A model generated the notes under the pieces. That model worked only from the letters and a program-made list of their open reading frames with translations, searched no databases and was not told where the DNA came from. A stretch of DNA of 64,000 nt from a phage, in sequence record PZ179880.1; one strand, written 5' to 3'. This document shows positions 1,969 to 61,127 of the stretch, piece by piece (the stretch's first letter is position 1; every line of letters begins with the position of its first letter). Position numbers and translations under genes: made by a program.

Positions 1969-2301
1969 TTATTTTACTACTTTCCAGTGCTGCATGTCAA
2001 GTTTGCCAACTTTTTTCATCTTCTCAATTAAGCGTTCTGCACGTTGGCGAGCTGTAACATAATACCATTCACCTAATTCATTTTGTTCAATTTTTCCAAC
2101 GATTACTGTATTCAATTCATAAATCCAACCAGTAAAGAAATTATGAACTTGGATTGTAAAGGTGAAATCTGTTCCCATACCTTCTGTTGTTTCTACTTCA
2201 ATAATATCACCTTCAACTGCCATTAAGAACCACATAGTTTCATCATATTTACCATTGAAGCATTTAGTTTTAACTGTAGCGTTCAGATTAATCGTTTTCA
2301 T
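1969..2301 (-). CDS. hypothetical protein (110 aa)
   Basis: ORF downstream of early promoter at ~2322-2358. Confidence 0.45.
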   Translation of the reverse strand: MKTINLNATVKTKCFNGKYDETMWFLMAVEGDIIEVETTEGMGTDFTFTIQVHNFFTGWIYELNTVIVGKIEQNELGEWYYVTARQRAERLIEKMKKVGKLDMQHWKVVK

Positions 2302-2321: not shown

Positions 2322-2358
2322 TAAGATAATACTATCACAAAGGAACTATACTGTAAAC
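2322..2358 (-). promoter_or_regulatory. early promoter
   Basis: GTTTAC -35 and TAGTAT/TATTAT -10 on minus strand. Confidence 0.45.
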
Positions 2359-2411: not shown

Positions 2412-2588
2412 TTATGCTTTCTGCTTACCAAAACGAGAAGCATCATCTCGAAGAACCGCACGTGCTCGGCGCATGATCTTCTCAACAGTTTGATTGATAC
2501 GAGAGTTCGACCCACGCTTGTAACCAGCGCGTTTAGAATCACCAACTTTCTTTTCAACTGCTTTCTTTGCTTTAGCTTGTTTTGCCAT
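2412..2588 (-). CDS. small highly basic protein (58 aa from MAKQAK; ORF track extends to 2630)
   Basis: Lys/Arg-rich ORF followed by UUCG-hairpin terminator at 2383-2406. Confidence 0.4.
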   Translation of the reverse strand: MAKQAKAKKAVEKKVGDSKRAGYKRGSNSRINQTVEKIMRRARAVLRDDASRFGKQKA

Positions 2589-2827
2589 TATAAATTCTCT
2601 TTTAAATGAAAATGCAGGACTTATTGGCATTGCCTGCGAAAGCCCTCAAGGGGGTACTTAGGTTTTGAATATTTACCGACAGGATAACCATAAACCTCGT
2701 CAACATTCAAGAGGTACACCGTAAAACTGCCGGGGTCTTAAAACTATAATGATTCGCAAATCATTAATCAGACAGTTCGACGGCTCCTCGATTTTAGCTC
2801 ACACTAAGGCAGTGAATCTCCAATAAA

Positions 2828-3076
2828 TTACTTCAGTGTTACCACAAAGTGACGAACTGCTTTTCGTGCAGCAGAAGCCAGAGGCTTAGCATACTTAAGT
2901 TCATCTTTTTCCTGGAGCTCAGCAGCTAATGCAGTTTGAGCAGGATTCAGATGTTTGAAATAACGCAGGATTTCAAGAGCTTCGGCTTCAACATCAATAG
3001 ATGCGCCATAGTTTTCGTGACCATTATTCCATGCGTTTCGTTGCAGTTCAAGAGCGTGTTGTAATTGTTTAATCAT
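2828..3076 (-). CDS. rIII: lysis-inhibition accessory protein rIII
   Basis: 82 aa, position immediately downstream of gene 31 as in T4. Confidence 0.7.
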   Translation of the reverse strand: MIKQLQHALELQRNAWNNGHENYGASIDVEAEALEILRYFKHLNPAQTALAAELQEKDELKYAKPLASAARKAVRHFVVTLK

Positions 3077-3215
3077 TTAAAAATTCTCGTTAGAGATTAA
3101 AACTCGGTAGTCACGTTCTTCTGAATTTCATCTTCTTTCGACAGATCTCTCAGTTGTAGACTACCACATAGAATTGTTCGGTTAACTTATTATTCCGACA
3201 CCCAATTCATATTAT

Positions 3216-3223
3216 TATTTATA
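3216..3223 (-). promoter_or_regulatory. late promoter-like TATAAATA upstream of rIII
   Basis: Exact TATAAATA on minus strand abutting gene 31 stop. Confidence 0.4.
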
Positions 3224-3559
3224 TCACTTATAAAGACATGGAATAGCTTTATAGTGACAGGTAACGAATTTTTGTTTAATTTCTTTTGGCTGCTTAAGAC
3301 CCAGAGCTACAAAAGGATGCGGAACGTTTCGAATTTGACCAACTGGAAGAGAAGTCAAATCACCAACTTCGCAGAAACCTTCAGGAACATCAGGACCAAC
3401 AGAGTGAATTACACACAGTTCAGGAACTTCACCTTGAACACGTTTACCGATAATAAGTCCTGATTCTGTAACTTCTTCATCACCGGCTTGTGCAGGTTCA
3501 GAAACTAAAATAACATATTCACCGACAGCACGAATTGGTAGCTGTTGTACTTCAGACAT
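3224..3559 (-). CDS. 31: co-chaperonin gp31 (GroES-like) for capsid folding
   Basis: 111 aa; sequence matches remembered T4 gp31; synteny cd-31-rIII. Confidence 0.85.
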
Positions 3560-33332: not shown

Positions 33333-33415
33333 AGACCTTCCCCTTATGTTTCTGTTTGCGATTAGATTCTTTAAACGCTTTCTTCTTATCCTTATGGACA
33401 GAAGCTTTATTAAAA

Positions 33416-33634
33416 TTATGTTTTGCGACTAAATTGTTCATAGTGCTGAATTACCTCTCTTAAACATTTGCATGTGAATGAAAACTTTTTAGCTACACCA
33501 CATTCAAATATATGTTCTCTTAAATCACGCGTGTCAGTATATCCCATCTCAACAATAAAATGCCGTATTAGATTTTTATCTTTATCGTTGAGGGAATTAA
33601 AATAATCGGATTTTGAATTAATTTCCCTGGCCAA
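33416..33634 (-). CDS. hypothetical Cys-containing small protein (72 aa)
   Basis: ORF (arn.x slot). Confidence 0.4.
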   Translation of the reverse strand: MAREINSKSDYFNSLNDKDKNLIRHFIVEMGYTDTRDLREHIFECGVAKKFSFTCKCLREVIQHYEQFSRKT

Positions 33635-35347: not shown

Positions 35348-35379
35348 TTTCTAATCTCCGTAATTCTGTATCAGTAGTT

Positions 35380-35418
35380 GATAGTTGTATAGTACCACAG
35401 TATGCTTTGGTTGTAAAC
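35380..35418 (-). promoter_or_regulatory. early promoter cassette (PeSL-type), copy B, for motA
   Basis: GTTTAC -35, TGGTACTAT -10, conserved leader; A/T-rich UP region and terminator immediately upstream. Confidence 0.55.
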
Positions 35419-35442
35419 CGTTTTGTGAAAAAAATTTTGAAA

Positions 35443-35469
35443 TAAAAAAGGGAGAGCCGAGGCTCTCCC
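35443..35469 (-). terminator. intrinsic terminator downstream of gene 52 / small membrane ORF
   Basis: 9-bp stem GGGAGAGCC/GGCUCUCCC followed by UUUUUUAUUU. Confidence 0.7.
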
Positions 35470-35477
35470 TAAAATTA

Positions 35478-35624
35478 CTACATGACTGTGATAACTGTCA
35501 TGATAACACGTTGAATTCCGAACGCAAGAAGACCTCCTGCTACGGCAGGAACAACACCTAAACCCGCCAGTAAAATGCTACCGGATACTAATGCAGCGCT
35601 TGTAATACCTATGAATGGACTCAT
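35478..35624 (-). CDS. small hydrophobic membrane peptide (48 aa)
   Basis: Not in ORF track (<60 aa); ATGA overlap with gene 52 stop; Gly/Ala/Val-rich TM sequence; terminator directly downstream. Confidence 0.45.
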   Translation of the reverse strand: MSPFIGITSAALVSGSILLAGLGVVPAVAGGLLAFGIQRVIMTVITVM

Positions 35625-39855: not shown

Positions 39856-40117
39856 TTAGACTTTCCTTTTTACCGCTGAGATAAGCGTTATATACTTTAA
39901 GAGTACCATAATAAATTCTGTCATTTTCATCTAAAGACTCACGGTCGAGTTCATCGAGTTCCTTTTTATCCATGACTATAACATCATTACAGTAAAGAAA
40001 CCCAAGTTTTTCGTGACCAAACTCAAATTTATTGCAGTACACAATATTAGCGTGATGATTTCCGTGTAGATTAATCTCTTTTATGTCGGAATCACCGATA
40101 TTCATACAATAAATCAT
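39788..40117 (-). CDS. hypothetical acidic protein (109 aa)
   Basis: ORF, overlaps denB start. Confidence 0.4.
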   Translation of the reverse strand: MIYCMNIGDSDIKEINLHGNHHANIVYCNKFEFGHEKLGFLYCNDVIVMDKKELDELDRESLDENDRIYYGTLKVYNAYLSGKKESLNAENESGFTETISDSDIYPIEQ

Positions 40118-40127
40118 AATTTCCCTT

Positions 40128-40150
40128 AAAACAAAAGGGCCGAAGCCCTT
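40128..40150 (-). terminator. UUCG hairpin flanked by U-runs on both strands
   Basis: AAGGGC-UUCG-GCCCUU then UUUGUUUU on mRNA. Confidence 0.45.
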
Positions 40151-40153
40151 ATT

Positions 40154-49417: not shown

Positions 49418-49670
49418 TAATAATCGCCTTATAAAGATGGCTAATTTCACCTAAAATATAATCACTGATTGTGACAGTTTTCACTCTACCACAAAAGAAT
49501 TCTAACGCAGTCAAATCTCGTTCAATTTCTTCCAATTGAAGCATTAACTTACTAGACTCAATTTTTACAGTTTCATAATTTTTACTATAAGATATTTCAT
49601 AAATTTCGCTTACTTTATCTTGAAGAAGATAAAACTGATCTTTAGTTATTTCCACGAATAGCTTCCTCAA
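49410..49670 (-). CDS. hypothetical protein (dexA.1 slot)
   Basis: 86-aa ORF. Confidence 0.45.
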   Translation of the reverse strand: MRKLFVEITKDQFYLLQDKVSEIYEISYSKNYETVKIESSKLMLQLEEIERDLTALEFFCGRVKTVTISDYILGEISHLYKAIINV

Positions 49671-56070: not shown

Positions 56071-56085
56071 GTAATTCTCCTTTAT

Positions 56086-56295
56086 TTAAATTACATGACT
56101 ATTTATAATAAATTCTTGTGGAACGTTAAAATACCCAATTTTAGTTAATATAACAACATCACCGTTAATAATTACCGGAGAATAATCGGCTGGAGCATTA
56201 AACTTCCAATGAGCTCTAATATTATATCCATCAGAACCAAATGCTCAACTAGCCGGTCTCCCGGCTTTTTGCCATGCATAAAAATCAAATTTCAT
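56086..56295 (-). pseudogene. 70-codon frame interrupted by in-frame TGA (codon 17)
   Basis: ATG at 56293-56295 overlaps upstream stop (ATGA); TGA at 56245-56247; frame continues 52 codons to TAA at 56086-56088. Confidence 0.4.
56100..56107 (-). promoter_or_regulatory. late promoter TATAAATA for soc
   Basis: Reverse complement is TATAAATA, 30 nt upstream of soc ATG. Confidence 0.65.
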
Positions 56296-60626: not shown

Positions 60627-60929
60627 TTATTTTAAAACTTTTGCATAATCACATGTTACAAACTGTTTCTCTAACTTGACGATTTTACGAAAGTATCTTT
60701 TGCATTGACGAATCTGTCGCTTCGTAGGACGCACAGCAAACTTAATAGATTCCACTCGACCAAATGGAGGACTTTCTTCTGCTGAAATATCTAACACCAA
60801 TTCCCACGTATCCGCAATAAGTGCTTTGAATTGTGTATTTTTCCTGATGTTATACGGAGTAGGTTTAAATAAAACCGTATGCATATTACCCTCGCCAATC
60901 AGATTCAAAAACTTTTTTATCATTAACAA
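60627..60929 (-). CDS. hypothetical basic protein (61.2-61.4 slot; start may be internal MHTVLF)
   Basis: 100-aa ORF overlapping dmd 3' end. Confidence 0.4.
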   Translation of the reverse strand: MLMIKKFLNLIGEGNMHTVLFKPTPYNIRKNTQFKALIADTWELVLDISAEESPPFGRVESIKFAVRPTKRQIRQCKRYFRKIVKLEKQFVTCDYAKVLK

Positions 60930-61068
60930 ATGCTTTAACTAGTGCTTTATTAACTTCAGCATATTGAGTAGTAGCCCATTGAACGTCATCTTTCATCATT
61001 GTGGTCTCTTTAGTAAACATGCTTTCATTCTTAAACCACCCCATAAAAACTACCTTTACCAATTCCAT
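60886..61068 (-). CDS. dmd: Dmd (antitoxin against host RnlA/LsoA RNase toxins)
   Basis: 60 aa; adjacent to gene 41; matches remembered T4 Dmd. Confidence 0.6.
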   Translation of the reverse strand: MELVKVVFMGWFKNESMFTKETTMMKDDVQWATTQYAEVNKALVKAFVNDKKVFESDWRG

Positions 61069-61099
61069 AACAATCTCCTCATTTAACCAACAAGACTAC

Positions 61100-61127
61100 T
61101 ATACCATAGTCTTGTCAGCTTGTAAAC
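61100..61127 (-). promoter_or_regulatory. early promoter with 8-bp inverted repeat across -10
   Basis: GTTTAC; CAAGACTA/TAGTCTTG inverted repeat around TGGTATAG. Confidence 0.45.

Follow-up and report, generated by a model that had tools for sequence, protein, structure and literature searches.

A conserved array of putative RNA modules between genes rIII and 30.9 of T4-type phages

Sequence record PZ179880.1 holds a T4-type (Tequatrovirus) phage genome, of which we analyzed a stretch of 64,000 nucleotides (nt), hereafter called the window. The genes of its rIII region lie on the minus strand, and between the stop codon of rIII and the start codon of 30.9 there is a spacer without an evident gene, which raises the question of what this part of the genome is. 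An initial annotation of the window placed a non-coding interval of about 217 bp at 2611-2827 and suggested a structured non-coding RNA (ncRNA), an extended untranslated region (UTR) or processing site, or the scar of a deleted gene. The gap itself is real, yet one border had to be moved: the next conserved start is the ATG of 30.9 at 2588 (MAKQ... in all relatives), so the spacer extends from 2589 to 2827 and is slightly longer than first described. Comparison with related phages makes it very likely that the minus strand of the spacer encodes a structured RNA with a function. The proposal of a structured ncRNA or extended UTR is borne out by compensatory changes in stems, by modules that are better conserved than the flanking genes and by a strand-specific signal, while a deleted gene finds no support. 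The spacer and its neighbors are as follows.

2828-3076, minus strand: rIII, an 82-amino acid (aa) lysis-inhibition accessory protein (phrog_1457), upstream neighbor of the spacer
2589-2827, minus strand: non-coding spacer from the rIII stop to the 30.9 start, 239 nt
2412-2588, minus strand: gene 30.9, encoding a basic protein of 58 aa whose Lys/Ala-rich tail varies and whose predicted arginine-rich helix is conserved

The length of the gap had been called exceptional, which overstates it. With a crude cover by open reading frames (ORFs), the spacer is long but not unique, ranking 7th among 67 uncovered stretches in the window, the median of which is 55 nt. Its relative richness in GC is confirmed: at 0.40-0.43, compared with 0.32 ± 0.05 in gaps of at least 60 nt and 0.354 in the window as a whole, the spacer has the highest GC content among gaps of at least 100 nt. 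Comparison of spacers divides it into the following modules.

2797..2821, minus strand: module A1, GGAGAUUCACUGCCUUAGUGUGAGC, a divergent version of module G, which is a small pseudoknot in other genera
2711..2789, minus strand: module A2, a long irregular hairpin of 79 nt, GAGG.CCGUC.AACUGUCU...UGAUUAAUGAUU-UGCG-AAUCAUUA...CGGCAGUU.ACGG...CCUC
2657..2701, minus strand: module PK, an H-type pseudoknot found in all 41 spacers examined, which come from several genera
2637..2657, minus strand: module E, a small and near-universal hairpin, GUA-CCCC(C)-UUGA-GGG-CUUUCG
2614..2637, minus strand: module H (T4 type), a hairpin, GCAGG-[GGC AAU GCC]-AAUAAGU-CCUGC
2595..2612, minus strand: a predicted hairpin over the purine-rich ribosome-binding stretch of 30.9, UUUUC-AUUUAAAA-GAGAA

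The pseudoknot PK consists of two stems (S1 and S2) and their loops, the third of which (L3) is A-rich.

2701-2695 with 2683-2678, minus strand: S1, GAC(G)AGG/CCUGUC, with one bulged G
~2692-2688 with 2662-2658, minus strand: S2, (UU)UAUGG/CCUAA
Loop 2 (L2): UUAU
2677-2663, minus strand: L3, a conserved 15-nt A-rich loop, GGUAAAUAUUCAAAA, which reads GKUAAAUAYCAAAA across relatives

An invariant UU after S1 is probably loop 1, leaving an S2 of 5 bp. Across genera the stems stay complementary in different sequences (GUCGUGG/CCAGAC, GUGGAUG/UCUCCAC, UUGUGAG/CUCACAA and UUAGUAG/CUACUAA). Counted with Python, S1 has a mean of 5.6 of 6 pairs compared with 4.1 ± 0.2 in shuffled strands (0/2000) and S2 is 78% paired compared with 67 ± 2.5% (0/2000); in a gap-free alignment of the four strands, pairing is 80% versus 66.4 ± 1.9% (0/500) and the covariation score 0.44 versus 0.22 (0/500), figures that are supportive and not formal probabilities, because the motif itself served as anchor of the alignment and the sequences are related to one another, which inflates the significance of a shuffle. 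Sliding the strand partners against each other drops the pairing to 33-54%, and 8 of the 13 pairs are altered on both sides. Two PK alleles exist within Tequatrovirus, the window type and the T4 type, in which 1-nt indels shift the bulged G between the two strands of S1. With our covariance model of PK (R1), the best match in the 64 kb reaches 64.7 bits and lies at 2652-2707 of the minus strand, the runner-up reaches 16 bits, and only the minus strand is hit. Since G-U pairs that are invariant or frequent in PK and A2 would become C-A mismatches on the plus strand, and since the model hit is confined to the minus strand, the fold is assigned to the minus-strand RNA. A possible pairing of the flanking AUGAUG with L3 was inconsistent among phages when inspected by eye and was dropped.

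The hairpin A2 has a predicted folding energy of -24.5 kcal/mol (z = -3.3), and 5 of the 25 pairs proposed by RNAalifold show compensatory double changes. Two natural mini versions of A2, in G50 and in locus L148, lack exactly the distal half of the hairpin and keep the base of the stem. Covariation thus points to at least two RNA structures in the window, PK and A2, and to further ones in relatives (modules B, F and G, below). The evidence for the smaller modules is of other kinds. A1 is weak on its own, since its fold has a z of 0; it retains the second stem of module G (UUCAC/GUGAG) with the first stem impaired in T4-type phages, and a G module occupies the position of A1 in locus L027. For E and H we relied on inspection only: the stem of E alternates among CCCC/GGGG, CCUC/GAGG and UCC/GGA, and in H the loop is conserved while the outer stem covaries (GAACUGG/CCAGUUC in L148 and L152). 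Different hairpins take the H position in other genera, and E directly follows the rIII stop in some phages. Of the two stems cited as examples in the initial annotation, gcctgcgaaagccctcaagggggtac (2632-2657, plus strand) is real, as it complements hairpin E together with the 5' strand of hairpin H, whereas the inverted repeat ggtagtc...gactacc lies outside the reported interval, at 3106-3112 and 3159-3165 in the spacer between gene 31 and rIII.

These modules are more conserved than the genes on either side. Compared with JS98-type phages, A2 is 98.9%, PK 93% and E plus H 95% identical, while rIII and 30.9 reach 83.9% and 77.4%; compared with L148, A1 is 100% identical over 30 nt and PK 95.6%, with rIII at 72.7%. 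Coding does not explain this conservation, as there is no conserved ORF, the indels are not in triplets, and the modules stand at 93-99% against 77-84% for the genes. The spacer does contain small ORFs of 20-34 codons, two on the minus strand (34 and 32 aa) and two on the plus strand (20 and 25 aa), but in about 40 spacers from several genera none of them keeps its length, frame or start codon. Single-nucleotide indels between the spacers of close relatives disrupt all of these frames. In the window, an ATG at 2630 could extend 30.9 upstream by 14 codons; in other phages it is replaced by ACG or lies out of frame. Annotated versions of 30.9 with N-terminal extensions (68, 72 and 97 aa) were rejected because their upstream ATGs are absent or out of frame elsewhere, as was an upstream ORF from the AUGAUG before PK, which varies from 3 to 34 codons, has no consistent Shine-Dalgarno sequence and lacks its AUG in some phages.

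A remnant of a lost gene, or a small protein gene that has escaped annotation, is for these reasons scarcely credible, even though the short ORFs are there and several GenBank records annotate hypothetical proteins in the spacer. An intact homologous ORF, as would be expected in some relative if the spacer were a pseudogene scar, was the refuting condition named in the initial annotation; it was sought in the same set of about 40 related spacers and not found, and even at 397 nt, the greatest length observed, the spacer of phage KIT06 contains no ORF of more than 45 codons. Length differences correspond to whole RNA modules gained or lost and not to the decay of a reading frame, and single-base indels are compensated at the level of the RNA helix, not of the frame. 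Neither the compensatory substitutions in the stems nor a conservation above that of true neighboring genes would fit a gene in decay.

The spacers of relatives are built from a larger set of modules than the window contains. We found 21 module arrangements among the 41 spacers, in variable order, and the sole parts shared by all of them are PK and the tail that precedes the start codon. The additional modules include a 135-nt element B, a 43-nt block (T2), a hairpin F and the small pseudoknot G. Module B, which is absent from the window, occurs in KIT06 (L002, 916-1050), KP179, PG7, L134-L153, L026 and L055, and is 90-95% identical across T4-like phages of Escherichia, Klebsiella and Enterobacter. 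Of its 38 predicted pairs, 16 show compensatory changes, and it includes an invariant 20-nt stretch, GCUAACGGUGUGCAACAGAU. It has no Rfam match and probably represents a separate, novel RNA with a complex fold. In module F, an internal loop (CCCA/GUAA) separates the outer from the inner stem, both of which covary, and the hexaloop UGUACG is conserved; module G reads GGUGAUUYGCUACC..AGUGCRG. Both recur at varying positions (KP179 = L007, L145, L144, L134 and L135). All modules of our spacer are single-copy in the 64-kb window, with one site per genome by BLAST.

How widely is the spacer distributed? The region is present in approximately 800-1000 sequenced phage genomes (BLAST). In every Tevenvirinae locus retrieved, which include Tequatrovirus, Jiaodavirus, Karamvirus and other unclassified T4-like contigs, rIII, a spacer of 120-460 nt and 30.9 are adjacent in this order. 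Acinetobacter T4-like phages (Twarogvirinae; Henu6 = L154 and Melin = L155) have no 30.9, no spacer and no PK hit, and an unrelated 106-aa gene begins 0-8 nt downstream of their rIII. Because spacer and 30.9 are always adjacent in the former group and jointly absent in the latter, the spacer can be said to travel with 30.9 in T4-like phages. When the PK model was run on 762 kb of other viral loci, matches were found solely in 17 rIII-bearing loci. A scan of IMG/VR with CCYTTGAGGGCTTKCG returned mostly chance matches, as expected of a 16-mer, besides JS98-type and phi92-type loci.

The covariance-model search that the initial annotation recommended returned no family: even at permissive thresholds Rfam 15 gave no match, whether the query was the 1-kb region, the spacer itself (248 nt), any of four longer relatives or the complete window. 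What appeared at those thresholds was noise, namely Atu_C8, CopA (E = 2.5-10) and the DUF2815 RNA. The sub-threshold hit to the Rhizobiales sRNA Atu_C8 is spurious, as it is due to the terminator behind 30.9 (2387-2408). The DUF2815 RNA (RF03084) was considered because the 3' part of E, H, the ribosome-binding site and the AUG align weakly end to end with its model of 62 nt, the two sharing a comparable hairpin and an A-rich tail leading to the AUG. It was rejected, with 14.6 bits against a gathering threshold of 41.2 (E = 4.3), no hit in L148, which has the most consensus-like stem, and no DUF2815 protein encoded downstream of the spacer. ARAGORN detected no tRNA- or tmRNA-like pieces in the modules, and no module is repeated elsewhere in the window. 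Two GGAG motifs in A1 and A2 were examined as possible RegB sites and fit the consensus GGAGRAYARAA (PMC1702504) poorly. In the literature on the spacer, T4 ncRNAs and gp30.9 we found no paper describing the spacer, though earlier transcript mapping may exist. A study of rIII/30.9 expression was reportedly made by Driukas and Nivinskas in 2003.

Transcription signals place the spacer inside a longer message.

3224-3559, minus strand: gene 31
3216..3223, minus strand: T4 late promoter TATAAATA, perfect, just past the gene 31 stop and annotated at the same position in T4 record X54536
2387..2408, minus strand: intrinsic terminator behind 30.9 with a 9-bp stem, UUCG loop and U-run, annotated in fPS-90 and G50
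2329..2357, minus strand: early-promoter-like site for 30.8, TTTACA-N17-TAGTAT, directly after the 30.9 terminator
1969-2301, minus strand: 30.8

The minus strand of the spacer carries neither a terminator nor a promoter of the sigma-70-like, T4 late or T4 middle class; terminator-like sites on this strand are confined to 2408-2387 and 2450-2434, behind and inside 30.9. A late-like TATAAATT with one mismatch at 2589 on the plus strand was discarded, since such sites occur at chance frequency (1.5 per kb). The rIII stop is not followed by a GC-rich hairpin and U-run on the minus strand, as a 3' UTR ending in an intrinsic terminator would be. With a late promoter upstream, no internal signals and a terminator behind 30.9, the spacer appears internal to an rIII-30.9 transcript: a late transcript from 3223 would run through rIII, the spacer and 30.9 and end at 2408-2387. 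Early and middle promoters further upstream would also feed the spacer-containing mRNA.

The PK model also matched a locus that is not T4-like (L104), which leads to a second setting of the spacer. Phage phi92 and 16 other phi92-like (Justusliebigvirus) records have a 332-bp insert in sense orientation between tRNA-Gly and tRNA-Gln.

L157, phi92 FR775895.2, ~555-900 of the reverse complement: insert
L104/L156, PD06: insert
L158: empty site

The phi92 insert is a circularly permuted T4-type fragment, in which the part from CACUGCC through the 30.9 ATG is joined to the last 27 codons and stop of rIII. A 13-bp direct repeat, TTTATTGGAGATT, brackets it. In T4 types this 13-mer comes directly behind rIII, after its stop codon. 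The leader and first 7 nt of tRNA-Gln consist of it in phi92-like phages, and sister phages of this group have an empty site with a single copy. Excision and integration of mini-circles are documented in T4-type phages (PMC4122927), and one crossover of a small circle at the 13-bp homology would give the arrangement seen. Four 146-kb records labeled 'Campylobacter phage' (e.g. A150 = L159, an 'UNVERIFIED' record with taxonomy Justusliebigvirus) are phi92-like genomes as well. Since they share the insert junctions and have a T2-type interior, with the extra 43-nt module and the window-type PK allele, the inserted copy appears to have later exchanged sequence with a T-even spacer. In these four the mini-ORF of the rIII tail is frameshifted and the RNA modules are intact. 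The element therefore moves between phages and persists without 30.9, and its capture in a tRNA operon is a clean natural experiment on the role of the RNA in the absence of that gene.

Within T4-like phages, 30.9 is the gene after the spacer in all Tevenvirinae loci. Its occurrence is limited to T4-like phages of Enterobacterales. Searches found no named relatives, neither a Pfam family nor a relative in the PDB, and only a PHROG of unknown function. Its alignment shows the Lys/Ala tail to vary by in-frame indels and the basic core to be strongly conserved. AlphaFold predicts a disordered tail and one long arginine-rich helix, a fold that is compatible with nucleic-acid binding and proves nothing. 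The accessibility of its ribosome-binding site is 0.32 in the window, which corresponds to the 7th-15th percentile of 72 control genes. In two loci (L149 and L150), ACCUCCUUA, identical to the 3' end of 16S rRNA and so a mimic of the anti-Shine-Dalgarno sequence, is found a few bases before GGAAGA, the ribosome-binding site of 30.9.

What might the RNA do? Our best, if tentative, answer is that PK may be a cis-acting operator that 30.9 binds in its own leader. We take PK as the operator because no other internal module is found in every spacer and because it has covarying stems and a conserved A-rich loop; the reading further draws on the association of PK with 30.9, the arginine-rich product, the poorly accessible ribosome-binding site in the window and the precedent of T4 gp32, which autoregulates via a pseudoknot in its own leader (T4 RegA and gp43 are also translational repressors). 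The spacer RNA, as part of the rIII-30.9 mRNA, is predicted to fold as a string of self-contained modules, namely A1, A2, PK, E, H and the hairpin at the ribosome-binding site. PK would be the operator for a protein, most plausibly 30.9 itself, and the spacer would uncouple 30.9 from the translation of rIII and set the level of 30.9. The other hairpins may be folding insulators or nuclease barriers that are swapped among phages by recombination. Several observations count against this proposal. The distance from PK to the 30.9 start ranges from ~55 to ~300 nt with other modules between them in no fixed order, which a simple steric operator does not easily accommodate. Phages of the phi92 type retain the entire spacer although they lack 30.9, and so many interchangeable modules are not expected from the needs of one gene's leader. 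The model of 30.9 is of low confidence (pLDDT 66), with no homology to RNA-binding proteins found. Accessibility of the ribosome-binding site averages 0.46 in 21 relatives, compared with 0.50 ± 0.18 in controls, so that a general sequestration of this site is rejected. The inflation of the shuffle statistics noted for PK has to be counted here too. If PK does prove to be the operator of 30.9, it would offer a first way into the role of 30.9, an orphan that invariably accompanies the lysis-inhibition gene rIII.

The main rival, likewise tentative, is that the RNA acts in trans, with modules that are cut from the mRNA, or that work within it, as aptamer-like units binding or sponging host or phage factors. 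Partners could be S1, RNase E, Hfq or a defence protein, or the RNA could form a ribonucleoprotein (RNP) with 30.9 for antitermination of the N/nut type; the modules would then be the RNA counterpart of accessory protein genes, a repertoire reshuffled by recombination. The beads-on-a-string organization suits this idea, with its 21 architectures and variable order, as do modules that are self-contained and each have their own covariation. Conserved single-stranded loops (L3 of PK, the loop of H and the 20-nt stretch of module B) suggest recognition by a partner. The capture in the phi92-like tRNA operon occurred in sense orientation and without 30.9, at a place where tRNA processing would release the RNA, and the captured copy appears to have exchanged sequence later with a T2-type spacer. 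In Tevenvirinae, on the other hand, the spacer is never apart from 30.9, and the single crossover at 13 bp of homology that explains the phi92 insertion need not be adaptive. The only two substitutions in the insert of the phi92-like phage arall fall in the stems of A1 and E, as if these were unconstrained there. A wider version of the same idea, which we regard as unlikely, is that T-even phages carry unrecognized accessory genetic material in the form of a recombining array of independently folding RNA modules acting in trans. The array would include PK as its universal member, module B of 135 nt, hairpin F with its UGUACG loop, the small pseudoknot G and hairpin A2, would act alone or as an RNP with 30.9 on host or defence factors or on transcription and termination, and would spread among phages and even families (T4-like to phi92-like) as accessory protein genes do. 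Modules acting in trans would amount to a new, shuffled RNA 'accessory genome' in virulent phages.

Two further explanations dispense with a specific partner or with RNA altogether. Passive mRNA architecture, that is, a barrier to RNase E scanning, 3' exonucleases or Rho loading that insulates without a specific ligand, would suit an untranslated spacer within an operon, stable hairpins, an H position that accepts many unrelated hairpins, and an E that can directly follow the rIII stop like a 3' stabilizer. It leaves unexplained the sequence-invariant loops, the pseudoknot with covarying stems that every genus has kept, the conservation above that of coding neighbors and the existence of the gap itself, as Acinetobacter relatives join rIII directly to the next gene, and we judge it improbable. 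An element acting at the DNA level (a recombination hot spot, a cassette of the promoter-early stem-loop (PeSL) type, or a replication or packaging signal) is very improbable. The locus is indeed recombinationally mosaic, the integration into phi92 is of the mini-circle type, and T4-type phages are known to have both mini-circles and PeSL cassettes (PMC4122927). Against this, the spacer has no promoter- or terminator-like site on the transcribed strand, the PeSL-like site being downstream of 30.9, its modules are unrepeated elsewhere in the window, and the G-U pairs and the strand-specific model hit favor RNA structure.

T4 is the best-studied phage, yet this 239-nt spacer is unannotated and without a family in Rfam 15. 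Among known systems, the gene 32 operator of T4 is the nearest to the proposed PK operator. Both are H-type pseudoknots in an untranslated leader of the same phage group, distant from the ribosome-binding site and conserved among T-even phages, and both precede the gene of a small protein, nucleic-acid-binding in gp32 and putatively so in 30.9. They differ in that no sequence relation is seen, the distance from PK to the start is variable and modules are interspersed. PK and 30.9 co-occur in all Tevenvirinae loci and are jointly absent from Acinetobacter phages; phi92-like phages have PK without 30.9. The riboswitches preQ1-I (RF00522) and SAM-II (RF00521) resemble PK in having a hairpin, an A-rich stretch and a 3' strand that pairs into the loop, upstream of a start codon. 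Neither model scored at E <= 10 in the 1001-nt and 248-nt searches, the stems and L3 of PK are much longer, and the gene downstream is 30.9, with no metabolic context.

The stable structured RNAs rnaC and rnaD of T4 (species 1 and 2) lie in a tRNA cluster, and the spacer of phi92-like phages sits in a tRNA operon in a comparable position. BLAST finds the modules at one place per genome, hence no detectable homology to other T4 loci; for rnaC and rnaD homology was judged by BLAST only, as the T4 tRNA region is outside the window. In phage lambda, nutL is an RNA site just upstream of N, which encodes a small arginine-rich RNA-binding protein. The order of a structured RNA, a gene for a small arginine-rich protein and a terminator just downstream is similar here and may serve as a lead only; we know of no antitermination at the T4 terminator behind 30.9. 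PeSL cassettes of T4-type phages are, like the spacer, short non-coding units tied to modular shuffling (PMC2839356, PMC4122927), and the mini-circle mechanism fits the phi92 insertion. They are DNA recombination sites composed of a terminator stem-loop and an early promoter (TTTACW-N17-TAYWAT in the T4/PST pair), whereas neither signal occurs on the minus strand of 2589-2827, where the modules are single-copy and covary at the RNA level. Downstream of 30.9, the terminator and early-promoter-like site (2408-2329) do fit a cassette of this type.

Other parts of the window and of public records deserve mention. The spacer between gene 31 and rIII (3077-3223) is also long at 147 nt, and holds the late promoter and the ggtagtc/gactacc repeat. 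Six more stretches of 200-300 nt lack an ATG-initiated ORF of at least 50 codons (39856-40153, 33333-33617, 35348-35620, 49418-49641, 56071-56291 and 60924-61126), and may contain small genes, genes with non-ATG starts or other non-coding elements; the one at 35348-35620 is also fairly GC-rich (0.40). GenBank annotation of the rIII-30.9 locus is inconsistent, with 30.9 called at 58, 68, 72, 97 or 102 aa and spurious spacer ORFs entered as hypothetical proteins and, in several records, as '1,4-alpha-glucan branching enzyme'.

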